A DNA stretch of 64,000 nt from an uncultured Methanomassiliicoccales archaeon (lineage in GTDB: Archaea; Thermoplasmatota; Thermoplasmata; Methanomassiliicoccales; UBA472): assembly GCA_942492955.1 (NCBI GenBank), contig OW818644.1, positions 770,327 to 834,326 of the forward strand. The letters run 5' to 3'. The notes below the pieces were generated by a model that saw only the letters and a list, made by a program, of their open reading frames with translations, did no database searches and was not told the DNA's origin. Positions 6,956-61,300 of the stretch are shown piece by piece; the stretch's first letter is position 1; each line of letters opens with the position of its first letter. Position numbers and translations under genes: made by a program.

Positions 6956-7023
6956 AACAATTGCCTTTCCCGAGTAGGGGATAGGCTCAATCCCTTTCAA
7001 TATTCCAGTTCACCAGCTGTCGC

Positions 7024-7821
7024 TCAGAACCGATAGCCTGCCTGGAATCCTAGTTCTTTGATCATTGACACTAACAGGTAGCGATGTTTGAGCGCATCCA
7101 GCATACCGCGCGACTTTGACTTGGAACGATGGAATGTATCGATCTTCATCTGATCGCGGTAGGCCCGCGTCCTTCTCCCGATGGACCTCTGATGTCTGTA
7201 AAGCTCCCGCGCGTTGCTTTCCTCGTTATGCCATACTGCGTCAGGAACGATGATCGAATCCGTGCTCTTCTCCCGCACCTTCGAGTACACCAGCGAGTCC
7301 TCGTAACTTCCCATGGTCGGGATCATTGATTCGGGGATCTGGGAATAGGCATATTCCAGCAGGGGTCGTTTGAATAGGCGAGGGTAGACATTGTAGCCCT
7401 CACCCCCGTTCATAGCCTCGGTCTCGAAGAACAGCCTCTGCCGGTCAAGCTCCCGTTGGACCCAATTCGAGGGTTTGTAGGAGCGTTCTCCCAGGACGAT
7501 CATGTCATGCTTCTGCATCTGCTCGATACAGCGGGAAAGGGCGCCTGGTTGCATCACCTGATCAGCGTCGATGTGCATGATCCAATCACCCTTCGAGGCT
7601 TTCAGACCCTCAACCCGGGCACCGAGAAGCCTTCCAGGATAATCGACCACTTTGGCGCCGAATCCGGCCGCGATCTCTTTGGTCCGGTCCTTAGAGAACG
7701 AATCGACCAGGATCACCTCGATATTCTTGTATTCCTGCTCTTTGACGGACTGTAATGCCATGCCGATATGCCTCTCCTCGTTGAGCGATGGTATGATGAT
7801 GGAGATGAGCCCGATTTCCAT
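7024..7821 (-). CDS. family 2 glycosyltransferase
   Basis: N-terminal ISIIIPSLNEERHIGMALQSVKEQEYKNIEVILVDSFSKDRT and the DxD-like HIDADQ are typical of the GT2 (GT-A) fold. Confidence 0.85.
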   Translation of the reverse strand: MEIGLISIIIPSLNEERHIGMALQSVKEQEYKNIEVILVDSFSKDRTKEIAAGFGAKVVDYPGRLLGARVEGLKASKGDWIMHIDADQVMQPGALSRCIEQMQKHDMIVLGERSYKPSNWVQRELDRQRLFFETEAMNGGEGYNVYPRLFKRPLLEYAYSQIPESMIPTMGSYEDSLVYSKVREKSTDSIIVPDAVWHNEESNARELYRHQRSIGRRTRAYRDQMKIDTFHRSKSKSRGMLDALKHRYLLVSMIKELGFQAGYRF

Positions 7822-7948
7822 GTGATGACCGCATGGCCAGTATCCAAACCTAGATAAATAGAAATATCGGTCATCTCGTCCAGAAAGATGTCCAGGCCAT
7901 GCCCGATCGGTGTCCGAGGGCGCGGAAAATGGAAGGGAAGAAAGTCAT

Positions 7949-8941
7949 ATGATCATCACCAGGACCCCTTACCGGATCAGTTTCGTCGGTGGCGGCTCCG
8001 ACATGGAATCGTTCTATGAGAAGCATCAGGGAGCGGTTCTCAGCTCCACCATCAACAAGTTCGTCTACATCTCATCACATCATTTCTTCGAGGAGGAAAG
8101 CATCCGCCTGAAGTACTCTAAGAACGAGACTGTCAAGTCGATCGCCGATATCCAGCATCCCCTGTTCCGGGAAGCGCTGTCCCAGTTCGGGGTGAAAGGG
8201 TCATTGGAGATGAGCTCAAATGGAGACGTGCCCGCAGGGACCGGGCTCGGATCGTCATCCGCCTTCACCGTGGGGCTTCTGCACAATCTCTACGTGCGCG
8301 AGGGCAAGTATGCGACCAAGGCCCGTCTGGCCGAGGAGGCCTGCGCTATCGAGATCGATCGCTTGAAGGAACCCATCGGCAAACAGGACCACTACGCCGC
8401 GGCCTTCGGCGGTCTTAACATCATCCGCTTCAATACCAATGGGACCGTAGAGGTAGAACCGATCCATCTCAACCAGAGAACGAACCGGGAATTGCAGACG
8501 AATCTGCTGATGTTCTACACTGGCACCCAAAGGAGCGCATCCACCATCCTGCAGGAGCAGAAGGACAACATCGCCGCGATGAAGAAGTCAGATGTACTGA
8601 TCAAGATGGTCGATCTGGTCTGGGAACTGCGAGACAGTCTGTTCAGCGGGGACCTCTCGTCTTTCGGAGAGATCCTGGACCGCAATTGGGCGTTGAAACA
8701 GAGACTGGCGAACGGCATCGGAACGGACCAGGTCACCTCGATGTATCGCAGAGGCATTGCGGCCGGAGCCTTGGGAGGCAAACTTTTGGGTGCTGGTGGG
8801 GGCGGATTCCTGCTCTTCTACTGCGAAAAAGAAAAGCAGGAGAGGTTGAGGGCGGAGCTCGCGGCACATCAGGAACTGAGGTTCAAGTTCGAGAACGAGG
8901 GTTCAAAGTTAGTTTTCGTAGGAGATGAGTATGAAGGCTGA
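7949..8941 (+). CDS. hddA: GHMP-family sugar kinase, D-glycero-D-manno-heptose 7-phosphate kinase (HddA)-like
   Basis: MIITRTPYRISFVGGGSDMESFY resembles the HddA/GHMP N-terminus. GHMP motif PAGTGLGSSSAF is present, and the C-terminal GAGGGGFLLFY. ATG at 7949 was verified behind GGAAGGGAAG. The ORF-track GTG is at 7910. Confidence 0.8.
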   Translation: MIITRTPYRISFVGGGSDMESFYEKHQGAVLSSTINKFVYISSHHFFEEESIRLKYSKNETVKSIADIQHPLFREALSQFGVKGSLEMSSNGDVPAGTGLGSSSAFTVGLLHNLYVREGKYATKARLAEEACAIEIDRLKEPIGKQDHYAAAFGGLNIIRFNTNGTVEVEPIHLNQRTNRELQTNLLMFYTGTQRSASTILQEQKDNIAAMKKSDVLIKMVDLVWELRDSLFSGDLSSFGEILDRNWALKQRLANGIGTDQVTSMYRRGIAAGALGGKLLGAGGGGFLLFYCEKEKQERLRAELAAHQELRFKFENEGSKLVFVGDEYEG

Positions 8942-49709: not shown

Positions 49710-50094
49710 GAAGATCGAACTACCAAATCACATTCTGGGACATGAAGGCATCGATTCAAAATCATGTACTTTGCAATTATGCCGCAACATTTGGGACGAT
49801 TGCATGGATGATGGAACGATATCGGAATCCGATTCATGATTCTTTAATGACATCACGATCAGGTTTCATCCGATCAATTGATTTTTATCTCATATCGATC
49901 GGACAAAATGATGCAATTCGACATTATCCATACGGTATCCCGGGCATGTTCAATCTAACACGTATTATTATAATAAATGGCCATCCGTAATCTCAAAGCG
50001 TTTCCATTGTATTTTACATTAGCCAGTCTAAAAATATTATGGAAAAATTCTGAGTACCCTAGATAATCTGATGATTACAATACGATTCAGCATG

Positions 50095-50219
50095 TTTATA
50101 TAATGAAATTATATTCGAAGAAGCACAAGAGGCATCCGGGGAAGGCTCGTTTCCTATTCTCCTCCTAAGAATGGTAAAATTTCATTCCACCTTGCAGAGC
50201 CTTCCCGGCCCTCTTTTCT
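50095..50219 (+). ncRNA. candidate small RNA or structured 5' leader (TATA box, 12-bp stem hairpin, oligo-T)
   Basis: A consensus-like archaeal TATA box TTTATATA lies at 50095-50102. CCGGGGAAGGCTC (50136-50148) pairs with GAGCCTTCCCGG (50197-50208), with one bulged base. This is followed by CTCTTTTCT (50211-50219). It sits about 130 nt upstream of egsA. Confidence 0.2.
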
Positions 50220-50347
50220 AGTTTGTCAAATCACACATTTGACCGCTAGTCCCCAAGCCAGCAACTGGCTTATTCCAAACTGGCGGGAGCTTGTACCGAT
50301 AACTTGAATAGAGTGCATCTGCATAAACCTCCGTTCAGGGTGCTTGG

Positions 50348-51412
50348 ATGGATGAGGGTGACTTCACCAAGGCTCGTTCGATGCTTTTTCCAAGACAGGT
50401 TCTTGCGGGGCATGGTGCTATCGAAGCAATCCCCCAAATGTGCAAGGATTTCGGTCTGACTGGAACCGCATTGATCGTTGCTGGTGACAAGACCATGAAG
50501 GTCGCGGGAGATATTGTATCCGAAGGATTGCTCAAGAACGGCTATGGTGTCCAGTCCATCATGGTCGGAGAAGCCACTGAGGACAATCTGAAGAAAGTGG
50601 AACAGGCGGCAAGAGAGGCCAAGGCGAGATTCCTTTTGGGAGTCGGCGGCGGCAGCAAGATCGACCTGGCCAAGATGGCGGCGATGAACACTGGCACAGA
50701 GTTTCTTTCCGTACCAACTTCAGCTTCTCATGATGGCATCGCATCTGGACGAGCATCGATCCGCAACGATAAGGGGCCGATGTCGTTGGACGCCAAGGTC
50801 CCGCTCGGTGTGATCGCAGACACGAACATCATAGCGAAATCACCATACCGGTTGCTGGCCTCGGGATGCGCCGATGTCATCTCGAACTCTACCGCCTTGA
50901 TGGATTGGGAATTCGCCAGGAGGCTTCGGTACGAGAGCTTCAGCCGATCGGCCTATGCCCTGTCGAACTACACGGCACAGACCATCATTGACAACGCTGA
51001 CCTGATAAAACCGAATCTGGAGGAATCCGTCTGGATCGCCATCAGGCCGATAATAATTTCTGGGATCTCAATGAGCGTGGCAGGAAGCTCCAGGCCGACG
51101 AGCGGTTCGGAGCACATGTTCTCCCACGCGTTGGATATAATTGCACCGGGGAAGGCATTGCATGGGGAGCAGTGCGGAGTCGGCTGCATCATGATGATGT
51201 ACCTGCACGGCGGAGATTGGTGCCGCATCAGGACAGCATTGATGAAGATCGGGGCACCCACCTCCGCCAAGGAGCTGGGCATCTCCAAAGAGCAAGTGAT
51301 CCAGGCCTTGGTAACGGCCCACAAGATCAGGAAGGATAGGTTCACCATCCTGGGCATGGGGTTGACCTATGAGGCTGCAGAGAGGATCGCGACGATAACG
51401 AAAGTTATCTGA
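50348..51412 (+). CDS. egsA: sn-glycerol-1-phosphate dehydrogenase (archaeal lipid backbone synthesis)
   Basis: VGGGSKIDLAK, PTSASHDGIASG and GSEHMFSHAL are G1PDH (iron-ADH superfamily) motifs. Confidence 0.9.
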   Translation: MDEGDFTKARSMLFPRQVLAGHGAIEAIPQMCKDFGLTGTALIVAGDKTMKVAGDIVSEGLLKNGYGVQSIMVGEATEDNLKKVEQAAREAKARFLLGVGGGSKIDLAKMAAMNTGTEFLSVPTSASHDGIASGRASIRNDKGPMSLDAKVPLGVIADTNIIAKSPYRLLASGCADVISNSTALMDWEFARRLRYESFSRSAYALSNYTAQTIIDNADLIKPNLEESVWIAIRPIIISGISMSVAGSSRPTSGSEHMFSHALDIIAPGKALHGEQCGVGCIMMMYLHGGDWCRIRTALMKIGAPTSAKELGISKEQVIQALVTAHKIRKDRFTILGMGLTYEAAERIATITKVI

Positions 51413-51428
51413 TGGATGGTGAGATTTG

Positions 51429-51854
51429 ATGGTCATAGTCACATTGATTGGTGAGAGACAGGCGAAGGAAGGCGTCGAATTCGTCTACCGGGGACCGCTA
51501 ACGGAATGCAAGGAGTGCAAGCTGAAGACGGTCTGCTTCAATCTTGATGCGGGAGGACGCTACCGGATAAAATCGGTCCGGGATGTCCATCACGAATGCA
51601 AGATGCATGAGGACGGGGTCAGAGTGGCCGAGGTCGAACGGGTCAAGATACAGGGTTCCGTCAGCAAGAAGGCGGCCTTGGAAGGCTCGACCATCTCCTT
51701 TGAGGACATCAAGTGCCGCACCCTCGGATGCACCCACTATCGACTGTGCCACCCCATAGGGCTGGAGAAGCACGCCAAGATGCGCATCTCCAAGATCCGG
51801 GGGGACCTGGTGTGCGCGGAAGGGAACAAGCTGGTCGAGGTCACCTTCGAGTGA
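51429..51854 (+). CDS. UPF0179-family archaeal protein
   Basis: VTLIGERQAKEGVEFVYRGPLTECKECKLKTVCFNLDAGGRYRI resembles the conserved Cys-containing UPF0179 family. Assigned from memory. Confidence 0.65.
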   Translation: MVIVTLIGERQAKEGVEFVYRGPLTECKECKLKTVCFNLDAGGRYRIKSVRDVHHECKMHEDGVRVAEVERVKIQGSVSKKAALEGSTISFEDIKCRTLGCTHYRLCHPIGLEKHAKMRISKIRGDLVCAEGNKLVEVTFE

Positions 51855-51878
51855 TAGGTCAACATAGAGGCTCATCGA

Positions 51879-52307
51879 ATGACCACTCCGCTCGTCGAAA
51901 AGGTGGTTGAGGCCCGTGTCGGGATGATCAAGAACGAGCTATCTGGAATCTTCCCAAACGCATATATCGAGGTCGTCACCGCAGTGGACGGTCGGGCGGT
52001 TATCAGGATGATCGAGGAAGGGTCGGTCATCGGAATGGAGTTCGTGGAGACGGGCATTTCCTGGAACGACCCAAAGCGGGTGCGCGACTATTATGTTGCG
52101 CTTGTCAACAAATGCCGGGTCGGTGTGATCGTGCCGAAAGAGCACGCGATGAGCGCCAGGATGAGGATGCTTGAGTTCAACCAGCGTTGGCTGTTCTATT
52201 ACCAGGTCTTTTCGTACGATGCTGAGGGCAATCTGAGAAAGATCGGCAGGCCTCACGATGATGGGACCAGGCCGGGAATTATCGGGACGATGCCCGGATA
52301 CACATAG
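51879..52307 (+). CDS. hypothetical protein
   Basis: 142-aa ORF with protein-like composition, 24 nt downstream of the UPF0179 gene. No family recognised. Confidence 0.5.
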   Translation: MTTPLVEKVVEARVGMIKNELSGIFPNAYIEVVTAVDGRAVIRMIEEGSVIGMEFVETGISWNDPKRVRDYYVALVNKCRVGVIVPKEHAMSARMRMLEFNQRWLFYYQVFSYDAEGNLRKIGRPHDDGTRPGIIGTMPGYT

Positions 52308-52321
52308 GGAATGGAGTAGGG

Positions 52322-53242
52322 TTACCGGAACCTTTCTCCGGTAAGGCGCTCGTAGAGGTCGATGTAAAGCCTCGAGACCTTCTCCACCATCTCCGGCGGC
52401 AGGGCGGGGATGTCCGGCTCTGGCATATGATTCTTGCGGGCCGTGTACAGCTTCTCATGGTACCCGATGTCCCGGTAGTACTGGCGGACCATTTCCTTGG
52501 AAAGCTCGACACACTTGCCCTGGGCATACTGCGCCGCATCCCACCAGCGATCCTCGTCGGCGGTACCGAACGTGTCTACGATCATGAGATTGCGATCCTC
52601 GTCATAGGCGAACTCCTTCTTGCCGTCGACGTGGATGAGACCGCGCTTTCCCACCTCGGTGGCGATGATGGCATCGATCTTGCCAATGACCTCGAAGACG
52701 TGGTCATATTCCTCGCCGGTCAGGCCGGATATTCGGATGGCTTCGTCGTGTGTCAGCTCGCGGTCGGTCTCCTCTAGCTTGGTGGTCGCCTCGATGAAGT
52801 CCTTCGGCAGCCGCTCGCCGTAAGCGGGGTCATGTCCTTTGGGGAAGCCCATCATCTCAGGGGTCACGCGCCCTTCCTTGACCCGGTCATTGAGCGACCC
52901 GGCGTTGTAATGACGGCAGATGAACTCCAGTGGGATGAGGTAGTTGGTGGTCTTGTGATTCAGTTTGCTGTAGTCCGGAATGACGTCGACACGCTTCACC
53001 AGCATACGGTTCGGTCCATTCATCTCCTTGAAATCGGAGCGGATCCCATTCTCCTTCAAAAGCTTGAACCAGTGGGCTGATGTCCGGCAGAGCGTCTCCC
53101 CTTTGAACGGAATGTCCGAGGGTATGATCTTGTCGAAGACAGAGATGTTGTTGGTGAACTCGAACTCCAACGTGTTGGAATCGACCTCGTAGACCTTCTT
53201 GACCTTACCGACCCGGAAGAGCTTCTTGTCTGACATCGGCAT
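52322..53242 (-). CDS. purC: phosphoribosylaminoimidazole-succinocarboxamide (SAICAR) synthase
   Basis: GKVKKVYEV...FTNNISVFDKIIPSDIPFKGE...TSAHWFKLL matches the long-form PurC N-terminus. Length 306 aa. Confidence 0.85.
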   Translation of the reverse strand: MPMSDKKLFRVGKVKKVYEVDSNTLEFEFTNNISVFDKIIPSDIPFKGETLCRTSAHWFKLLKENGIRSDFKEMNGPNRMLVKRVDVIPDYSKLNHKTTNYLIPLEFICRHYNAGSLNDRVKEGRVTPEMMGFPKGHDPAYGERLPKDFIEATTKLEETDRELTHDEAIRISGLTGEEYDHVFEVIGKIDAIIATEVGKRGLIHVDGKKEFAYDEDRNLMIVDTFGTADEDRWWDAAQYAQGKCVELSKEMVRQYYRDIGYHEKLYTARKNHMPEPDIPALPPEMVEKVSRLYIDLYERLTGERFR

Positions 53243-53309
53243 TGAATCGGCACCTGACTAATATTCTTTTCTAGGTACGTTTGGGGCCTGCTCAAATTGT
53301 CTAACCTTG

Positions 53310-54191
53310 TTAATATCTATCCAGGTCCCAGTGGAAGAACCCAATAGATCCAGCGGTCTTATTGTGGCCGATGAAATATATGAAATAGTATCCAGCTGGC
53401 ATCTCCAATACGCCGGTAGTCCTGTTCGCGTGCAACATGTATAGGTTCAGGTCATACGCAAACGGTCCCCTCTCGGCCATTGAACGTACGTTGCCTTCAC
53501 TGAAGCCCATGACGTCCACGTCGGTTGCATTCAGGCTATAATTCAGGTGAGCTCCATTCTTAGAATAAAACAACATTCCCGAGGTTACGCCGGCTGCGTC
53601 AATGCCTCCCATACCTCCCTCGCTCCCTTCGGTTGGCATGACCTTGGGCTGCAAATTGAGCGGTTGGGTGTTGTTGACCCCAACCCATTGATTTGTGGTG
53701 CTTGTTAGCACAAGGCTCAAATGAACATTCGGACCGTTCACCGATGCTCCGTAAGAAATTCCGGGATTCGCTCCGACGTAGTTGATCATGGCCCAACCTC
53801 CGGTGACGCTAAACATCCAAACCACCTCCTTGACTCCGAACGGGGTCATATATTTGCCAGTGGCCGTCTGGGTCCCACTTCCGAATAAATCAAGAGGCGA
53901 ATGGCCCCAGAATGTCGAATTCAGTTCCTGGTTCGAGAAGCTTGTGGTTTGACCACTATAGCCAGAATCAGAAGTTGCATCCACCTGGACCATACCTGTG
54001 ACAGGCGTGTCGTTGTACATGCCGTTAAGTGTATAGGTGAACACATCACCAGCATGAACACCGGACCGATCGAGGTAGATGCTACTGTTATCATTCGGTG
54101 GCTTATTCGATACCAGCAAGATCGATGCTGACACCAGGACCGCCACTATCAAGATAACTGCTGCGACCTTCCATTTCCTCGAATATGACAC
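53310..54191 (-). CDS. membrane-anchored, N-glycosylation-sequon-rich surface protein (paralog of 3271-4170)
   Basis: 293 aa with a GTG start and N-terminal anchor VAAVILIVAVLVSASILLV. Collinear similarity to the 3271-4170 product along the whole ectodomain. Confidence 0.7.
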   Translation of the reverse strand: MSYSRKWKVAAVILIVAVLVSASILLVSNKPPNDNSSIYLDRSGVHAGDVFTYTLNGMYNDTPVTGMVQVDATSDSGYSGQTTSFSNQELNSTFWGHSPLDLFGSGTQTATGKYMTPFGVKEVVWMFSVTGGWAMINYVGANPGISYGASVNGPNVHLSLVLTSTTNQWVGVNNTQPLNLQPKVMPTEGSEGGMGGIDAAGVTSGMLFYSKNGAHLNYSLNATDVDVMGFSEGNVRSMAERGPFAYDLNLYMLHANRTTGVLEMPAGYYFIYFIGHNKTAGSIGFFHWDLDRY

Positions 54192-54275
54192 CCTCTCTCA
54201 TCTCCCCTTCTTAGAGAAAGGAATCTGTAAGTTATTAGAATATTCCAATGAGGTTTAGATCATTGGGAGATGGAT

Positions 54276-54980
54276 TCAGATCATCTCCGATCCGGCGTGC
54301 ACGACGATGCCCTTGTTGGTGATCTCGTAGGGAGTGATCTTCCTGGAGTGCGTGGTCCGCCTCATCTTGATTATGCGCAAGGACAGCTGCATCTCGCTCC
54401 TCTCGACCCGGTCCACGTAGCGAAGGGAGATCACGCCGTCGGCCACGTATTCGACCAGTCCGTCCCTCGATGCCAACGGGTTGTCGTCCCTGGTCTCCGC
54501 GGTCATCAGGCAGGTGGCGTTCGTCCTCTTGATCATCTGGGACAGGTTGAAGAGGTTGATCCTGCGCTCATGCTCGTCCACGAACAGCATGTTCAGCAGC
54601 GAGACCGAATCGAACACGATGCGGGTCGCCCCGAACTTCGAGATGAAATCGGGCAGTTCGCTCTTGATCCTGGATATCGTGGTCTTAGCGTCGCTAGGCT
54701 CCAGCTTCACGATCACCATCTTCTGTGCGTCGATCATAGGTTTGAGGTCCCAGCCATGCGACTTGGCATCCTCTATGATCGAGTTCTGGTCCTCTTCCAG
54801 CGAGATGTAGATCACTTTCTCCCCGTTCGCCAATCCTTGATTGAGGAACTGCAGTCCGAACGTCGTCTTCCCCGTACCGAACGATCCCATGACCACGAAC
54901 GTGTGCGACTTCGGGACACCGCCCTCTAGGAGCTCGTCCAGTCCGTCAATTCCGGTCTTAACTCGGTCCATGTTGCTCAC
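54276..54980 (-). CDS. KaiC-like / RecA-superfamily ATPase (single domain)
   Basis: Canonical Walker A VVMGSFGTGKTTFGLQF and Walker B RIVFDSVS. N-terminal TGIDGLDELLEGGVP is typical of the KaiC/RadA-like family. GTGA overlap with the upstream gene (alternative ATG at 54971). Confidence 0.85.
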   Translation of the reverse strand: MSNMDRVKTGIDGLDELLEGGVPKSHTFVVMGSFGTGKTTFGLQFLNQGLANGEKVIYISLEEDQNSIIEDAKSHGWDLKPMIDAQKMVIVKLEPSDAKTTISRIKSELPDFISKFGATRIVFDSVSLLNMLFVDEHERRINLFNLSQMIKRTNATCLMTAETRDDNPLASRDGLVEYVADGVISLRYVDRVERSEMQLSLRIIKMRRTTHSRKITPYEITNKGIVVHAGSEMI

Positions 54981-55822
54981 CCAATCCTTTCTGTGTCGAT
55001 GACCACTAGGCCGCTCTGGGCGGTGACCATGGTCGCGAACCTAGCAATGCGCTCCCTGTCCAAGTGCGGCAGGATGCTCATGAACTTCTCCACGTACAGA
55101 TAGCGCTGCCTCTTGGAGGAGGAGACGAAACGGCTCCATTCGAAGACCAATGCACCATCCACCGAATCCATGATCATACGCTGGAGCCTCTCGTCGATGA
55201 TATCCTTGGTAAGAAGCAGGTAAACCACTCCGCCCCACTTCTTGCTCACCCTCTGCATGCCGCGAAGCACCGCCACCAGGTCCCTTGGGTCGATCTTCTG
55301 GTTCAGCACCAGGTCGGTCAGGGAGTCGATGATCACCATGCTCTTCGGGGCGTTCTCATCGAGATAGTTGACAAGACCTTCAAGCACGCCCTCTTCGTCG
55401 CTCACGTTGGAGAACAGGGCGGACGAAGTATCACCGGACCAGCTCTTTGGCACCAGGGTCTGCCTGAAGTATTTCGAGGAAAAGTCCTTGAAGATCACGT
55501 TCTTTTCGAACGATTCATAGAAGTCCAGATTGAAGGACATCTCGATCTCCTGGAGTATGTCCTCCTTGGACCTTGAGAATGTGATGTAATGTATCGATTC
55601 CGGCATCATCCGCCCCTTGACGCTGTGACCGAGGAAGAACTCGGCGGAATCGGGATTCTCTTTGATAAGCGATATCTTAGCCGCCGAGGTCAACGCATAT
55701 TCCTGCTGGCCTGCCCCTAGATCACCCAGAAGGAGGACCACAGAACCAACGGGCATGCCTCCCCTGATGATACTGTCAAAATCAGCCACTCCCGTAGGAA
55801 TCCGTTTCACTGGTGCATCCAT
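54977..55822 (-). CDS. KaiC-like ATPase paralog with degenerate P-loop
   Basis: TGVADFDSIIRGGMPVGSVVLLLGDLGAGQQEYAL has the KaiC-like N-terminus, but GAGQQ replaces GxGK[ST]. Walker B-like MVIIDSLTDL is retained. Confidence 0.7.
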   Translation of the reverse strand: MDAPVKRIPTGVADFDSIIRGGMPVGSVVLLLGDLGAGQQEYALTSAAKISLIKENPDSAEFFLGHSVKGRMMPESIHYITFSRSKEDILQEIEMSFNLDFYESFEKNVIFKDFSSKYFRQTLVPKSWSGDTSSALFSNVSDEEGVLEGLVNYLDENAPKSMVIIDSLTDLVLNQKIDPRDLVAVLRGMQRVSKKWGGVVYLLLTKDIIDERLQRMIMDSVDGALVFEWSRFVSSSKRQRYLYVEKFMSILPHLDRERIARFATMVTAQSGLVVIDTERIG

Positions 55823-55902
55823 TGCCCTTCCATCCTATACCATTATATTGTTACTTTGATTAATAGGATTGTATCAAGCGCCAGATTTACGAAACTGACG
55901 GA

Positions 55903-56370
55903 TCATTTCAGCGCCCTGATGATGAGTTCGATGAGATAGTCTGACGCTAACCTTTTCACGACCGTCCTATCACCTTCGAAGAGCATCCTCTCCGCCCATA
56001 TTTTATCGCCGTCATCAATGGCAAAGTATACCAGGCCGACCGGCTTCCCCGGCCTCTCGCCGCCAGGGCCAGCGATCCCTGTGACGGAAACCCCTATGCT
56101 GGTATGGAACCTGTTCCTGACCCCGGCGGCCATCTCCAACGCGCACTGCTCGCTCACCGCGCCTTGATAGGTGATGGTTCCTTCCTTTACCCCTAGCATC
56201 TCGACCTTCGAGCGATCACTATAACAAACGACAGCGCCTAGAAAATAATCGGACGAACCTGGCACGTTGGTGATCAGATCGCTCGCCAGACCGCCGGTGC
56301 ACGACTCTGCCAGGGAAACGGTCGCACCCTTGGACCTAGCTATCTTCCCCAATTCCACTTCCAGAGTCAT
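55903..56370 (-). CDS. CinA C-terminal domain protein / nicotinamide-nucleotide amidohydrolase (PncC-like)
   Basis: TVSLAESCTGGLASDLITNVPGSSDYF and GVSVTGIAGPGG are CinA-C hallmarks. Confidence 0.85.
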   Translation of the reverse strand: MTLEVELGKIARSKGATVSLAESCTGGLASDLITNVPGSSDYFLGAVVCYSDRSKVEMLGVKEGTITYQGAVSEQCALEMAAGVRNRFHTSIGVSVTGIAGPGGERPGKPVGLVYFAIDDGDKIWAERMLFEGDRTVVKRLASDYLIELIIRALK

Positions 56371-56911
56371 CTTCCATCTTCCTCCTTAGATTCGGGGTCA
56401 GGTCCCTGATGCGGTTGATGCCGTCGATATCATCGATCACCTTGACCACGGCCGGCGGTACCAGGTCCTTCCATTCCGCCCCCATCGACATCCTGCGCCT
56501 GATCTCCGTCCCGGAGTAGATCTCCCGGTTGAACATGGGAGAATCGTGGATCTCATATCGCGCCTCGGAGAACAGCCTCCTGGTCAGACTGTTGTTGGTG
56601 AAGACCACCTCGAAAGGCGGCACCATGGAGACCACATGAGAGACCCAAACGGCATAGCGGTTTATGTCCACGATCGGGACCAGGAAATACTCCTTCAGTC
56701 CCTCGTCCTTGAGAGCGCGGGAGATCATCAGATGCCTCTCACCGGCGGTAAAGGGATTCTCATAGGTGTGGGAATACTGGGCGCTGCCGATTCCGATTAT
56801 CAGCGAATCGCATTTCTTGGCGATGGATCGCACAACCTCCAGGTGACCCTTATGGAAAGGCTGGAAACGCCCAATCAGCAGGCAGTTCGAGAAATGCTCC
56901 GGTACGTCCAT
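56336..56911 (-). CDS. nadM: nicotinamide-nucleotide adenylyltransferase, archaeal type
   Basis: LLIGRFQPFHKGHLEVV (the (H/T)xGH nucleotidyltransferase motif as in archaeal NMNAT) and a later SGTEIRRRM motif. The 3' end overlaps the cinA-like gene by 35 nt. Confidence 0.9.
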   Translation of the reverse strand: MDVPEHFSNCLLIGRFQPFHKGHLEVVRSIAKKCDSLIIGIGSAQYSHTYENPFTAGERHLMISRALKDEGLKEYFLVPIVDINRYAVWVSHVVSMVPPFEVVFTNNSLTRRLFSEARYEIHDSPMFNREIYSGTEIRRRMSMGAEWKDLVPPAVVKVIDDIDGINRIRDLTPNLRRKMEDDSGSGIGEDS

Positions 56912-57051
56912 TTTTATAACCGATGTCTTTAATGTCTAACTGGCTATAAGAATCCTGAGCCTGTGGGGCATCTAGAAACCCAAGTTTTGGTCCTTGTGGA
57001 GGGCTGGCGCCCTCCAAGCATTGTATGTTATTCCTCTGCTCATCAATTCCT

Positions 57052-57288
57052 TCAATTGGTTGTCATGGATCTTGCTCGGACGGCCTCCCCATGATCCATT
57101 TCGATGAAGGGAACGGTCCAGACATCTCTCACTTCGCCCGCAGCGTATGGATGGATATGTAGATGTCCTTCTGCCCCCGGCCGTCGCTGATCGTTCGGCA
57201 TGGGGTGGGGCGTGCTCCAGGTCCCCTGCGGAGGAGTCACCTCCGCTGTGTATAGTCCGTCCCTTTGCTTAACGATCTTGATCGGCAT
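57052..57288 (-). CDS. hypothetical small protein downstream of the toxin/immunity pair
   Basis: 78-aa ORF from ATG at 57288 (GTG at 57297 also in frame): MPIKIVKQRDGLYTAEVTPPQGTWSTPHPM... No family recognised. Coding status is uncertain. Confidence 0.3.
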   Translation of the reverse strand: MPIKIVKQRDGLYTAEVTPPQGTWSTPHPMPNDQRRPGAEGHLHIHPYAAGEVRDVWTVPFIEMDHGEAVRARSMTTN

Positions 57289-57496
57289 TATTTCCACTCC
57301 CCTATGGGAAGCCGACCCTCGTATCCTCGTCCCGCTATTTCAGCTCGTTCTACTTTAAAGAACTTGCCAGAGATGCCTACCGCCGAGATATAGGGACTCG
57401 TTTGTCTTTCCGTCCGGGCCGACCTGAAGCATAGGTCGTGCCAGCGTACACGAAGCAGTTGAACAGAGTTATGACGGTTCTCGCGAGAGGCCTGGA

Positions 57497-58360
57497 TCAC
57501 TCCTCGACGATCACCGGTTCGAAGACAACTCTCTTGATGTTGTGTCTCGAGAACAGCTGATACACCTTGTGGCTCACGATCCGCTCTGGACGAGCATCAT
57601 ACAGACCGAGCCATTCCGAGGTCTCGTTGAAATCCTTAGCGTCCCTCAGGGACTGCCTCCCGTACCTGATGGGAACGGCCACACCATAGATTGGATCCAA
57701 CGCTCGGTTTCGGCCGAACTTGCCGCACGTGCATCGTTTTGGGCCCGCTTCGGGCAGCTTTGCATCGACTATCTCCGTGGTCGGGGACATAGGGGGCAGG
57801 GTGTTAACGATATGGAGCTGGCTATAACCTGGGACCAGCATGTTCTTCTTGTACCTGAGCAGGGGCCAGAACTCGGCGCCCGTCAGGCCGGCATCCTCGA
57901 TGAGCTTCCTGAGGCGGTCGGTCACCAGGAACTCGTAGGTCCAGTTCAGGGCCAGGATGTCGTTCCTGCCGAATCTCGGCAAGCCCTTCACCTGGAACGG
58001 TCTGTCCTGGATCGCCCCAAAGCCGCACTTGGGGCAGGCGGTGCCGAGGTCATACGACGCCCTCTGCCATGCGTCCATCTCCTCCTCTGGCTGTGGATAT
58101 CCCCAGTACCCGGCCTGGCTCATACAGAGGAACTCGGCACTGTCCAATTCCTTCACCGTGAACTGCTTTTCTCTCATATCTGTGGGTCTTATTTCCATCC
58201 TTTGCAGTTCGTCCATGAGGCAAGGGTACCTCTCGTCGTCTATGTAGAGGTAGACGATGCCGACTATTTTCTCCTCTACGTCGATCTCCAAAGAATCGAA
58301 AAGGCCCCTTAGCCGATCAAGTTCTTCTGGACGGAAGACTAACCTCGATCTGATTCTCAT
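57497..58360 (-). CDS. putative immunity protein for the upstream Rhs C-terminal toxin (Imm11/double-CXXCG-like C-terminal domain)
   Basis: ATG lies 9 nt after the Rhs TAG stop, behind GGAGGG. The C-terminal ~180 aa carry CPKCG and a second Cys pair (RCTCGKFG). They also carry two segments, FLVTDRLRKLIEDAGLTGAEFWPL and IVSHKVYQLFSRHNIKRVVFEPV, reminiscent of Imm11/DUF1629-type immunity proteins (from memory). Confidence 0.65.
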   Translation of the reverse strand: MRIRSRLVFRPEELDRLRGLFDSLEIDVEEKIVGIVYLYIDDERYPCLMDELQRMEIRPTDMREKQFTVKELDSAEFLCMSQAGYWGYPQPEEEMDAWQRASYDLGTACPKCGFGAIQDRPFQVKGLPRFGRNDILALNWTYEFLVTDRLRKLIEDAGLTGAEFWPLLRYKKNMLVPGYSQLHIVNTLPPMSPTTEIVDAKLPEAGPKRCTCGKFGRNRALDPIYGVAVPIRYGRQSLRDAKDFNETSEWLGLYDARPERIVSHKVYQLFSRHNIKRVVFEPVIVEE

Positions 58361-58369
58361 GGACCCTCC

Positions 58370-61300
58370 CTAGGGAAGATACGGAGATATGGCTCTGAAC
58401 CATTCAGAACCCTCTCCATAGACTCCAGCGTAGATTCCTCTGAGCTGACCTTGAACTTGTTCATCGACATATTTTGAGCCATATGGTAGATGGCCCCTTA
58501 ACATCTGTGTAATTGTATTGTGATCAGCATGCGTCAGAGCCACTGCAGGTACGTCTTTCATACTCTTGAACCCTAGGTTCTTAGCGACCCTCCATTCCAG
58601 GAGCTTGTGCCTCTCCATGCCCTTGGGCAGGGGAATCTTCTGCAGCTCCCCATACGGCATGATTTCGCTTTTGCCAAGATGACCTACTAAATCTGGCGCT
58701 CGAGCAGCATCGTTCATCCGCCTAGATTCCAAGAGGTCCTTAGCCCTTTCAACAGCCTTCTCGCCATCTAAGGCTTTGTCCGCCGCCCTCTCTGCATCGA
58801 ACCCCTTGTCGATGATCTTCCCGACCTTGACCAAGCCCCCGATCGCGGGGAGGAACGGCACGGCGGTGCACACGACATCAACAGCGGTCCATCCCCAGTT
58901 CTCCGGTGTGGGATCGTTCCATAGCTCCACAATGTCCCATGCTAAACATGCGACGTCGAAGATAGTGTCTAAGAACGCACCGGTCGGGTCGGTATGTATC
59001 AGCGGGCTGTTCGCGCAGTACACGTACCGGTTCAGCGTCTGGGGCATGGAAAGGTGTCCGAGTTCGGGATCAAGTGCCATGAATCTGCCGGTGCTCGGGT
59101 CCATGTACCTTGCCGAAAGGTACACCAGACCGGTCGGCGAATCGACGATCTCTCCGGTGTAGGAGAACTTGTCCGTTCCGGCCGGGGAATAGATCTGTCC
59201 GAACGGCTTGTAAGTGACCGCCCATGACATGCAGTCCTGGATGTTCTTGTTGCCGTTGCGGAGCACGAACCGGGTGCTGCCCAGCGCGTCGGAGATGTAG
59301 ACGTAGCTCTCGCCTGCGCTCACGACCCGGAGGTCCAGCCCTCCGCTCAGGTAGATGTCCTTCTGACCACGGCCGTCGCTGGAGTTGAAGTAGATGGGGT
59401 CGTGTCCTGCGTAGATGTACCGGGTGATGGTCCCGGACTCCTCGGTCTTGGCGCGGGCGCCGTTGGCGTCATAGTAGTAACGGGCCACGGTCGTCAGCGC
59501 CCCCCAGCCGCCGGAGTACAGCTGCTTCCTGACCTCGGTCATCTGGCCGAACGCGTTGTAGATGTAGTTGTAGCGGACAGCGGAGGAGTTCTTCCAGAAG
59601 ACGTTGCCGTTGGCATCGTACACGTAGGAGTACGTCCCGTCCAACGTCAGCTTGTTGTACGTGGTGTATGTGGATGAGACGTTCGTGCCCTCGTTCTTCC
59701 AGATACGGTTTCCGACGCTGGAGTAGCCGTACTGGATCGTTCCGAAGGTGGAGTTGGCCATCGCTTTCGTCAGCCGGCCGAGCGAATCGTACCAGTAGTA
59801 CTCGTTCCCGGCCGAGCCGAAGGCGTCCTTGATGCTCGAGACGTCACCATCGGCGGTGAAATCATAGTTCAGGTCGAGGATGGTCACCCCGCTGCTGACG
59901 TTCACCGCCTTGATCTTGCCCACCATCCCGTTCGTCTTGTACGTGTACGTCACCGAACAGTTGGAGTCGCAATACCGCTTCGACGCCACGGAATCGTCCG
60001 GGTTGTAAGTGACGTTGAGGAGGAGGGTGTTCCCCATCTTCACGTCCACCGCCCGGCCATAGCGGTCGTACAGGTACGTTATCCGCCTGGCGTCCGGATA
60101 GTCGACGTAGACCACGTCCCCGACGGCGTTGTACGCGTACGTGAACGTGTAAGTGTTCGGCGAAACCTTCTGCACCGTGCGGTACAGCCGGTCGCGGCTG
60201 TCGTAATGGTAGGAGATGTTCCCCAGGCTGTTGACCTTCTCCGAGACCAGCCCGTCGGCGTTGTACCTCGTACGGATCGTTTCGCCGCCGCCAGTGACCC
60301 GGATGTTGTTGCCGGCGGTGTCGTAGGCGCTGGTGGTGACCTGCCCGGACCTTGATGTGGCGGTGAGGACCCGGCCAGCCTCGTCATAAGCGTAAGATTC
60401 GCTCTTCGCGTCCGGATAGGCGATGGAGGTCTGCCTTCCCAGCGTATCGTACGACATCCTGGTCACCTCCCCGTTGTCCTGCCTTACGGTGACCAGCTGG
60501 CCTACGGCGTTGTAGGCCATCCTGGTGACGTAGAAGGCGGACGCGGTGATGTACTCCCGGGTCTGGTTCAGCCGGCCGAGGTCGTCAAAGACGCTGACGG
60601 TCTTATGGCCCAGCTCGTCCAACGCGGTCACCAGCTTGTTCCTGTCGTCATAGGTCGTGTACGAGATGGTGTTGTCCGGGTTCTTGACCGAGGTGACCCG
60701 GCCCAGGTAATCATAGGTATACGTGACGACCCGGTTCATCTCGTCCGTGGCGGTGGCCACCTGGTCCTGCCAGTTGTAGGTCTTTTTGGTGACCGAATAG
60801 ACAACGCTCCCGGTTCCGTACCGCTCCGCCTTCATCTCCCGGCCGAGCCGGTCGAAAAAGACGACGCTCTTGCGGCGGAGCTCGTCGTAGACGGTGGCCT
60901 TGTTCGCCGAGTCGTCAAACAGCGTATAGGAGTTCGTGTAGTCCGGGTTCTCCTGATAGATGACCCGGCCGATCTCATCATATTGCCAATGACTCGTGTG
61001 TCCAAGGGGATCCGTCGCCGAGGTCACCCAGCTATTCAAGTGGTCATGATCGTAGCTTGACTTCGCCGAGGTCAGATCGTTGAATGTGAGGTCATCCACG
61101 TACATCCGGAATTCATCAATGAAGGCCCATGAACCGTAGGTGTAGATCTCGAAGCGCACCTTGACGCACTGCGACCAATCGATGTTGAAATCGCTGTTCG
61201 GATAGAGGGCCGGGTTTAGCCAGGTGTTGGTGGCGGGTTTCCCCCAGATGCATTTTGTGATCGAGGGGTTGCTGACCGTCTTGTTGTTGGTAGAGCCGCT

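Follow-up and report, generated by a model that had tools for sequence, protein, structure and literature searches.

A two-domain protein encoded behind an archaeal Rhs toxin gene, probably its cognate immunity protein and related to Imm11, SitI6 double-CXXCG and MXAN_0049

The locus

The stretch of DNA analysed here (the window, 64,000 nucleotides of contig OW818644.1 from an uncultured Methanomassiliicoccales archaeon) carries on its minus strand an Rhs/YD-repeat toxin gene and, immediately behind it, a gene for a protein of 287 amino acids (aa) whose role is very probably that of a cognate immunity partner for the toxin domain (CT) at the C-terminus of the Rhs protein. The host is archaeal, since the window encodes a glycerol-1-phosphate dehydrogenase and an archaeal-type NMN adenylyltransferase. 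The two genes and the sequence between them are arranged as follows.

57497 to 58360, minus strand: putative immunity gene, 287 aa plus stop codon with the ATG at 58360, taken from the list of open reading frames (ORFs) and from 37 homologues.
58361 to 58369, minus strand: spacer from the Rhs TAG to the immunity ATG, 9 nt, which reads GGAGGGTCC in the sequence itself.
58370 to 64000, minus strand: Rhs/YD-repeat toxin gene, more than 1,870 aa, its frame open past the listed GTG start to the window edge.

In minus-strand translation the 287-aa protein starts MRIRSRLVFRPEELDRLRGLFDSLEIDVEEK / MRIRSRLVFRPEELDRLRG, and all homologues begin at the methionine equivalent to its ATG. The spacer carries a GGAGG Shine-Dalgarno-type site, and the Rhs and immunity genes share one reading frame. 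The motifs that the initial annotation had quoted are all present in the product of 57497-58360, whose strand (minus) it had left unstated, and the N-terminal stretch of about 100 aa that it had described as acidic has a computed isoelectric point (pI) of 4.5 and a net charge of -9.5. The upstream ORF is a true Rhs protein, with matches to RHS_repeat (E = 2e-31), YD_repeat_2x and Rhs_assc_core (E = 5.6e-18). Since its frame is open to position 64000, the window contains neither the N-terminus of this protein nor any delivery domain it may have.

Pairing of the immunity gene with one toxin domain family

Look-ups of homologues, together with scans of genomes and metagenomes, provided 51 loci whose six-frame translations were searched with hidden Markov models (HMMs) of the immunity protein and of the CT, and the collapse of near-identical copies reduced these loci to 32 distinct contexts. 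In 18 of the 32, from both archaea and bacteria, the immunity homologue is preceded, at a distance of 8-25 nt, by the stop codon of an ORF whose C-terminus belongs to the same CT family. This partner takes three forms: a long Rhs protein (the window, L001, L011, L012, L031 and L045), an orphan CT fragment of about 150-470 aa (L003-6, L017 and L039), or a remnant that keeps only the last 30-50 toxin residues (L007-10 and L018).

The surroundings of several of these loci deserve a description of their own. In L039 (1705-10615, plus strand) the C-terminal fragments of Rhs-repeat proteins number at least four (472, 454, 650 and 638 aa). Behind three of them lies a small unannotated gene in each case (131, 288 and 211 aa), and the fourth extends up to the limit of the examined stretch; the 288-aa gene is the immunity homologue and occupies one immunity slot of a classic orphan toxin-immunity array. 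The 598-aa protein P0047 / P0184 (L050:7001-8797) joins a member of the immunity family (aa 1-285) to DUF1963 (E = 1.8e-46), and upstream of this fusion lies an Rhs remnant, as does an ORF that matches Ntox35 weakly. P0047 looks like a polyimmunity fusion of the kind described for polyimmunity proteins (PMC3482391).

In L011, from a Euryarchaeota RBG metagenome-assembled genome (MAG), a second orphan module follows the immunity homologue (7017-7913 and 7876-8478, plus strand) and consists of a CT with Q-A-H-H-A-F-P and an ORF of about 200 aa with an Imm11-like segment (VVSKKVVEILGSKRLTGWSTYHV); neither of the two has a Pfam match, and the window holds no such module. The genes that adjoin the immunity homologue in L003 (10964-11914, minus strand) and L019 (2569-3321, plus strand) encode two strand-helix-strand copies, give weak matches to the family profile and to Imm11/Imm43, and may be further paralogues of the same superfamily. 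Finally, L016 (7587-8633, minus strand) has an orphan immunity homologue amid genes of defence-island type (TIR_2, N6_N4 methyltransferase and DUF4062).

Co-diversification of the toxin domain and the immunity protein

The CT of the window belongs to a variant that reads E-R-H-K-L-[LI]-E-W-R, shared with L003-6, L011, L017 and L019, the spacing of which is identical to that of the [AVCI]-H-H-[LI]-[LIV]-E-x-R found in the others. In a neighbour-joining tree of the immunity protein (200 bootstraps, with deep branches below 35%), the loci with E-R-H-K correspond exactly to a clade of 100% bootstrap, and the variant is found only beside that clade. Because the window and L011 are 75% identical both in the CT and in the immunity protein, against 46% in the adjacent upstream Rhs core, the toxin domain and its partner appear to travel, and to be exchanged, as one module. 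The pairwise identities of the CT and the immunity protein correlate with r = 0.72, over 21 comparisons that come from only 7 pairs and are not independent.

Architecture and predicted structure of the 287-aa protein

The AlphaFold2 model of the protein, built on a 30-sequence alignment, has a mean predicted local distance difference test (pLDDT) of 90.5 and a predicted template-modelling score (pTM) of 0.87, and it shows two folded parts joined by a short stretch. These parts, with the motifs they contain, are the following.

58115 to 58360, minus strand: N-domain (aa 1-82), acidic (pI 4.6), ferredoxin-like beta-alpha-beta-beta-alpha-beta, pLDDT about 90-95.
58061 to 58114, minus strand: inter-domain stretch (aa 83-100) with G-Y-P-x-P (aa 87-91), which combines invariant columns with the lowest confidence of the model.
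57500 to 58060, minus strand: C-domain (aa 101-287), an alpha+beta domain like those of Imm11, double-CXXCG and MXAN_0049.
58022 to 58036, minus strand: first Cys motif, C-P-K-C-G (aa 109-113), with Cys109 and Cys112 as putative metal ligands.
57854 to 57931, minus strand: strand-helix-strand unit 1 (aa 144-169; FLVTDRLRKLIEDAGLTGAEFWPL, aa 144-167), the segment that matches the Imm11 model.
57722 to 57733, minus strand: second, degenerate Cys motif, C-T-C-G (aa 210-213, within RCTCGKFG, aa 209-216), with Cys210 and Cys212 as putative metal ligands.
57515 to 57592, minus strand: strand-helix-strand unit 2 (aa 257-282; IVSHKVYQLFSRHNIKRVVFEPV, aa 260-282), an internal repeat of unit 1.

The initial annotation had proposed a two-part layout whose N-terminal part could not be placed; this part can now be described as a folded ferredoxin-like domain of approximately aa 1-82 that is conserved throughout the family. 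In Foldseek searches the N-domain gives weak matches to PII, ACT and S6 folds (E about 0.08-0.5, probability up to 0.99). As for the C-domain, two segments noticed at the outset for their similarity correspond to the two strand-helix-strand units, which in the model comprise E144-147, H148-156 and E162-169 (unit 1) and E257-263, H264-272 and E278-282 (unit 2), and hhalign aligns their sub-alignments with P = 0.0023 over 24 columns, in the register given in the initial annotation. In the Foldseek search of the PDB, only the solution structure of MXAN_0049, 6a4c, matches at E <= 1e-3 (E = 3.3e-5, probability 1.0).

A database search retrieved 37 homologues at E <= 1e-46 that are 38-100% identical to the query and nearly all full-length (about 276-313 aa, with a few shorter fragments). 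Compared with 1.84 billion cluster representatives, the family profile of 30 sequences matched 1,955 of them at E <= 1e-3, of which 1,079 also satisfy E <= 1e-10. Among the 150 best profile matches, most are approximately 275 aa long and aligned from profile position 1 to about 275, and because they align end to end, the two-part architecture is a fixed trait of a sizeable family and not a local fusion.

The residues invariant in the close family include G87-Y88-P89-x-P91, C109, C112, Q118 and C212. Cys109 and Cys112 are kept by every close relative (30) and every distant one (47), and Cys212 in all 30 close relatives; Cys210 is present in 23 of these, and the seven that do without it all carry His214 instead (CxH). 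At the second motif most of the 47 representatives of the wider family show a canonical CxxCG. The exchange of Cys210 for His214 is good evidence for a four-ligand site, to which a metal would be bound.

The stretch W-G-Y-P-Q-P-E is the most conserved short motif of the family and falls within the least confident part of the model, residues 81-100, where pLDDT drops to 73 and 71, its lowest values. Conservation combined with low model confidence is a pattern typical of a partner-binding loop, which makes this stretch a candidate for the loop that contacts the toxin.

Relation to described immunity families

The initial annotation had called the C-terminal part Imm11/double-CXXCG-like. Query aa 140-176 align to positions 64-104 of the Imm11 profile (PF07791), and 21 of the 30 close relatives match Imm11 in the same region at E <= 1. 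The relative P0023, 42% identical to the query, passes the Imm11 cut-off with 29.4 bits, and aa 143-273 of another relative, P0142, align to Imm11 positions 72-191. The loose description of Imm11, alpha+beta with conserved hydrophobic residues, also applies to aa 101-287 of the query, which are mixed alpha+beta and bear the conserved hydrophobic residues on the two strand-helix-strand units.

The double-CXXCG proteins are represented by TIGR02264, named 'SitI6 family double-CXXCG motif immunity protein' in NCBIfam, and by its Pfam counterpart PF09535 (Gmx_para_CXXCG), with curated cut-offs of 100.15 and 25 bits, respectively. Relatives P0040 and P0047 match TIGR02264 positions 131-235 weakly (E about 0.01), and none of 47 diverse relatives matches TIGR02264 or PF09535 at E <= 0.01. 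A 214-aa protein of L049 served as positive control: it passes PF09535 (33.8 bits), matches TIGR02264 with E = 2.3e-8 and Imm11 with E = 4.5e-4, and is aligned by hhalign to the query family profile with a probability of 87.6% (E = 3.5e-6, query 136-274).

Taken together, we conclude from these comparisons that the C-domain belongs to the same superfamily as Imm11 and the SitI6 double-CXXCG proteins, and that the protein is a member of neither curated family. The label given at the outset is thus sound as a resemblance, borne by the matches of relatives, the hhalign result and the 6a4c fold, and fails as a statement of membership, since the query falls below the cut-offs. The comparison with the myxobacterial Sit systems was right insofar as NCBIfam names TIGR02264 after SitI6.

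The PDB sequence-profile searches with the alignments of the close family and of the diverse family, or with the L049 protein, gave no link to 6a4c, and a DotG match that they returned was discarded as an artefact of low-complexity repeats. In the bacterial locus L049 (5844-7831, plus strand), P0040 comes directly after the protein that passes PF09535, which itself follows a 129-aa ORF with a weak DUF2380 match; this appears to be a polyimmunity locus with two related families.

The C-terminal toxin domain

The C-terminal end of the Rhs protein is divided as follows.

58979 to 59212, minus strand: RHS repeat-associated core domain (TIGR03696, aa 1592-1669; NCBIfam E = 5.6e-18), which ends in DPxG motifs that mark the core/CT boundary.
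58739 to 58978, minus strand: linker from the Rhs core to the toxin (aa 1670-1749 of the listed ORF), which begins FLDTIFDVACLAWD and has no Pfam match.
58373 to 58738, minus strand: CT toxin domain, the last 122 aa, delimited by family alignments and by the AlphaFold2 model (pLDDT about 95 for residues 21-122).

The HMM of the CT family matches window positions 58376-58765, where the motifs M-E-R-H-K-L-L-E-W-R (58589-58618) and T-H-A-D-H-N (58517-58534) are found. The family comprises at least 45 proteins that carry no curated annotation, with Capnocytophaga and Paenibacillus among the named sources, and a homologue search with a single CT sequence retrieved only two proteins. In two family members a pretoxin HINT domain precedes the CT. 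The consensus is G-L-E-A-H-H-L-I-E-K-R-F...T-K-x-E-H-Q-x-F-T-N, with invariant His, Glu, Arg, His, Thr and Tyr. In 90% of 41 CT sequences the HH pair keeps its second His, while the window reads R-H-K. The last 90 aa of the CT have a pI of 9.5, as against 4.6 for the immunity N-domain.

In the AlphaFold2 model of the CT a strand carries the first His, and the helix after the second strand starts with the second invariant His, an order compatible with a beta-beta-alpha-metal finger. Because Imm11, SitI6 and MXAN_0049 counter AHH-type nucleases and the CT consensus contains A-H-H, the domain is likely to be a very divergent AHH-like nuclease. At E <= 1, none of the 41 CT sequences matches Tox-AHH (PF14412), and no HNH model matched. 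Tox-AHH is characterised by the residues [AG]HH, N, H, H and Y on an HNH/EndoVII fold, whereas H, (H), E, R, H, T and Y are conserved in the CT. A more tentative idea, which we consider rather unlikely, is that the CT represents a new toxin fold or enzymology (H-[HK]-x-x-E-x-R...H-x-x-x-T) neutralised through the GYPxP loop and the acidic N-domain. If that were so, the inhibition would follow a mode unseen in the single-domain Imm11 or MXAN_0049 proteins, and the system would be a compact and tractable archaeal Rhs weapon, possibly directed against bacteria as well as archaea.

Proposed function and alternatives

The notion that the 287-aa protein is an immunity protein, already put forward as a candidate role in the initial annotation, has been strengthened. 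Given its position and its conserved pairing with one CT family, of which the pairing context is the strongest evidence, and with the E-R-H-K variant confined to the window's immunity clade, the protein very likely acts as the cognate immunity protein of the Rhs CT toxin.

The mechanism proposed on this basis is the following. The Rhs and immunity genes would be co-transcribed, and the immunity protein would be translated from its own GGAGG site, 9 nt past the Rhs stop. In the producer cell it would bind the basic toxin domain of roughly 120 aa one-to-one and block it, which would shield the cell against toxin of its own making as well as toxin that sister cells deliver. The protein is predicted to consist of two packed domains, the acidic ferredoxin-like N-domain and a C-domain in which two strand-helix-strand repeats would surround a four-ligand (Cys/His) metal site, in the architecture of Imm11, SitI6 and MXAN_0049. 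The acidic N-domain may make an electrostatic contribution to binding of the basic toxin, and the invariant flexible GYPxP loop could act as a contact or as a plug of the active site.

Several results weigh against a cognate immunity protein of this kind. The query misses the Imm11 cut-off of 22.1 bits (12.0 bits, E = 0.13, over aa 140-176 only), no NCBIfam model matches it and TIGR02264 does not match it even at E <= 10, while the likeness to MXAN_0049 is at the level of fold only, with a target-normalised TM-score of 0.46 against the nuclear magnetic resonance (NMR) model. On the side of the toxin, the window CT has no Pfam match at E <= 10 and no PDB sequence match, a Foldseek search of PDB with the CT gave no match (best E = 1.2) and none to HNH, and the Lys that replaces the second His of the AHH-like motif means that the toxin could be altered or inactive. 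Lastly, no CT could be detected upstream in 14 of the 32 contexts. The immunity homologues there are of orphan or polyimmunity type, one of them the fusion to DUF1963; such copies are expected for immunity genes and do not count as evidence for pairing.

The substitution in the toxin motif underlies one alternative, which concerns the present function of the gene and not its identity: the module would be a relic in which an immunity-type gene is kept beside a window toxin altered or killed by R-H-K, that is, a decaying or repurposed cassette. The second His, so widely kept in the CT family, is Lys throughout the window clade, and in many relatives within this clade only an orphan fragment, with no Rhs body, is present (L003-6, L017). 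However, the variant has been kept across the clade at 51-75% CT identity with H44, E48, R50 and H73 retained, which points to purifying selection; moreover, the window and L011 carry it on full-length Rhs proteins and the immunity gene is always intact. A relic seems improbable and, like the two alternatives that follow, agrees poorly with the genomic contexts.

Known adaptors tend to have their genes upstream and to engage N-terminal or transmembrane regions. This counts against the idea that the protein is a secretion adaptor or chaperone that loads the Rhs toxin, like Eag/DUF1795 or DUF4123 of the bacterial type VI secretion system (T6SS), to which its adjacency to the Rhs gene and its extra N-terminal domain might otherwise point. 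The gene lies downstream of the CT and co-varies with it instead of with the Rhs N-terminus, the homologue persists where only an orphan CT fragment or remnant, devoid of a delivery domain, stands beside it, and the structural and sequence relatives are immunity proteins; an adaptor role is therefore very unlikely, and it was rejected on the evidence of genomic context. On the same evidence we rejected, as the least probable of all, an unrelated nucleic-acid-binding or regulatory zinc-ribbon protein beside the Rhs gene by chance, for the conserved Cys pairs and the scattered zinc-ribbon Pfam matches (weak, E > 0.001, in one to three members only) have to be set against the presence of one rare CT family beside the gene in 18 of the 32 contexts, in two domains of life, which is no coincidence, and against Pfam and NCBIfam searches in which no DNA-binding family was matched.

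Origin of the cassette

The CT and immunity pair occurs in archaeal MAGs (Euryarchaeota RBG_19FT_COMBO_56_21, 75% identity; Methanobacteriota, 46%; Thermoplasmata, 39%) and in a Chloroflexia bacterium (28%). Because the pair, or immunity homologues, are present in archaea and in bacteria, the cassette appears, judging by its distribution, to have crossed domains at some point. The initial annotation had suggested an inter-domain transfer of the whole cassette, and the presence of the pair in both domains would be compatible with a transfer in either direction.

A recent import of the whole Rhs-CT-immunity cassette from bacteria into the archaeon is a different matter. In its favor are the same pair in the Chloroflexia MAG L014, immunity homologues in Gottfriedia and in the clearly bacterial context L049, CT homologues in Capnocytophaga and Paenibacillus, and the fact that Imm11 was listed from bacteria only in the 2012 survey (PMC3482391). 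However, the window copy falls in the clade of 100% bootstrap, at 63-82% identity, whose sole named member is an archaeal MAG and in which L003 has a gene neighbourhood of archaeal type, three clade members being unplaced; the named bacterial relatives are at most 29-37% identical. The G+C content of the cassette (0.53-0.60) is inside the window range (0.50-0.58) and not deviant. With this placement in an archaeal clade, an unremarkable G+C content and deep nodes that have no support (bootstrap below 35%), a recent import into the window's archaeon is not supported and we regard it as doubtful at best.

Other features of the region

A 256-aa ORF on the plus strand (57542-58312), antisense to the immunity gene, was taken as a shadow ORF because the minus-strand product has full-length homologues with E down to 1e-196; it was judged from these homologues, with no search of its own. 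Downstream of the immunity gene an 80-aa ORF (57052-57294, minus strand) is preceded by GGGGAG; it matches no family (best Pfam E = 0.23) and resembles neither the CT nor the immunity HMM. No tRNA gene lies within window positions 50000-64000. The visible N-terminal part of the Rhs protein (62996-63982, minus strand) contains two tandem copies of approximately 138 aa (SRTSATGISQVTHSF...NVRVYTG; aa 2-139 and 193-330) with a weak match to a Sialidase-like CBM, and more copies may lie upstream, the frame being open to 64000 with the same junction sequence.

Significance

The locus represents an ordinary kind of system, an Rhs toxin-immunity pair, and leaves the current understanding of the mechanism unchanged. 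What it adds is a sizeable two-domain immunity family (about 2,000 clusters at 50% identity) that has no curated model and that would bridge Imm11, SitI6 double-CXXCG and MXAN_0049 into one superfamily tied to AHH-type toxins, together with a partner CT family that is also unannotated and has no structural match. A Pfam or NCBIfam model for each of the two families would improve the annotation of Rhs loci in archaea and bacteria. Archaeal polymorphic toxin systems had been predicted from genomes and were still experimentally uncharacterised in 2021 (PMC8416519). The locus described here is a small, well-defined pair (a CT of roughly 120-200 aa and an immunity protein of 287 aa) that is amenable to co-expression.

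Comparison with known systems

The organisation of Rhs/YD-repeat toxin and immunity genes is known from descriptions in bacteria and from predictions in archaea (PMC3482391, PMC8416519). The present locus has the same layout, with an Rhs-associated core, a variable CT and then an immunity gene a few nucleotides downstream, and its relatives include the orphan modules and remnants known from such cassettes. It differs from them in that the host is archaeal and that neither the CT nor the immunity family falls under a curated model.

With the SitI6 double-CXXCG proteins it shares two Cys motifs that flank the first strand-helix-strand unit, with the second unit C-terminal to them, whereas the second motif of the query clade is CxCG or CxH. 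The SitI6 model has 236-237 positions, and the 214-aa protein of L049 aligns to the C-domain of the query only, with no counterpart of the N-domain seen. The SitA6 toxins bear AHH nucleases (PMC8546572). The SitA toxins are myxobacterial lipoproteins moved by outer-membrane exchange, unlike the partner found here, which is an Rhs protein in an archaeon. The link to Sit is drawn from the name of the NCBIfam model only, because in the main text of the eLife 2017 Sit paper double-CXXCG is absent and SitI1 is described as SUKH.

Imm11 is an alpha+beta immunity family whose partners are Tox-AHH, Tox-HNH and Tox-SHH and whose members lie near RHS toxins, belong to polyimmunity loci or form part of fusions (PMC3482391). 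Its description in the 2012 survey cites conserved hydrophobic residues only and no Cys motifs (PMC3482391); with respect to Imm11, the query family adds two Cys motifs, the invariant GYPxP and an N-domain of 82 aa.

Experiments have established MXAN_0049 as the immunity partner of MXAN_0050, an AHH nuclease that Myxococcus xanthus delivers by T6SS and to which MXAN_0049 binds in pull-downs (PMC12077131, PMC6627406). With about 194 aa (a 585-bp gene, PMC5996272) it is too short to contain a counterpart of the 82-aa N-domain, and its toxin is a Pfam AHH nuclease of a bacterial T6SS, in contrast to the unclassified CT on an archaeal Rhs protein considered here. The likeness lies in the arrangement: MXAN_0049 has its own gene directly downstream of that of the toxin, is acidic where the toxin is basic, and acts by direct binding (PMC12077131, PMC6627406), which is how the archaeal protein would be expected to act on its partner.

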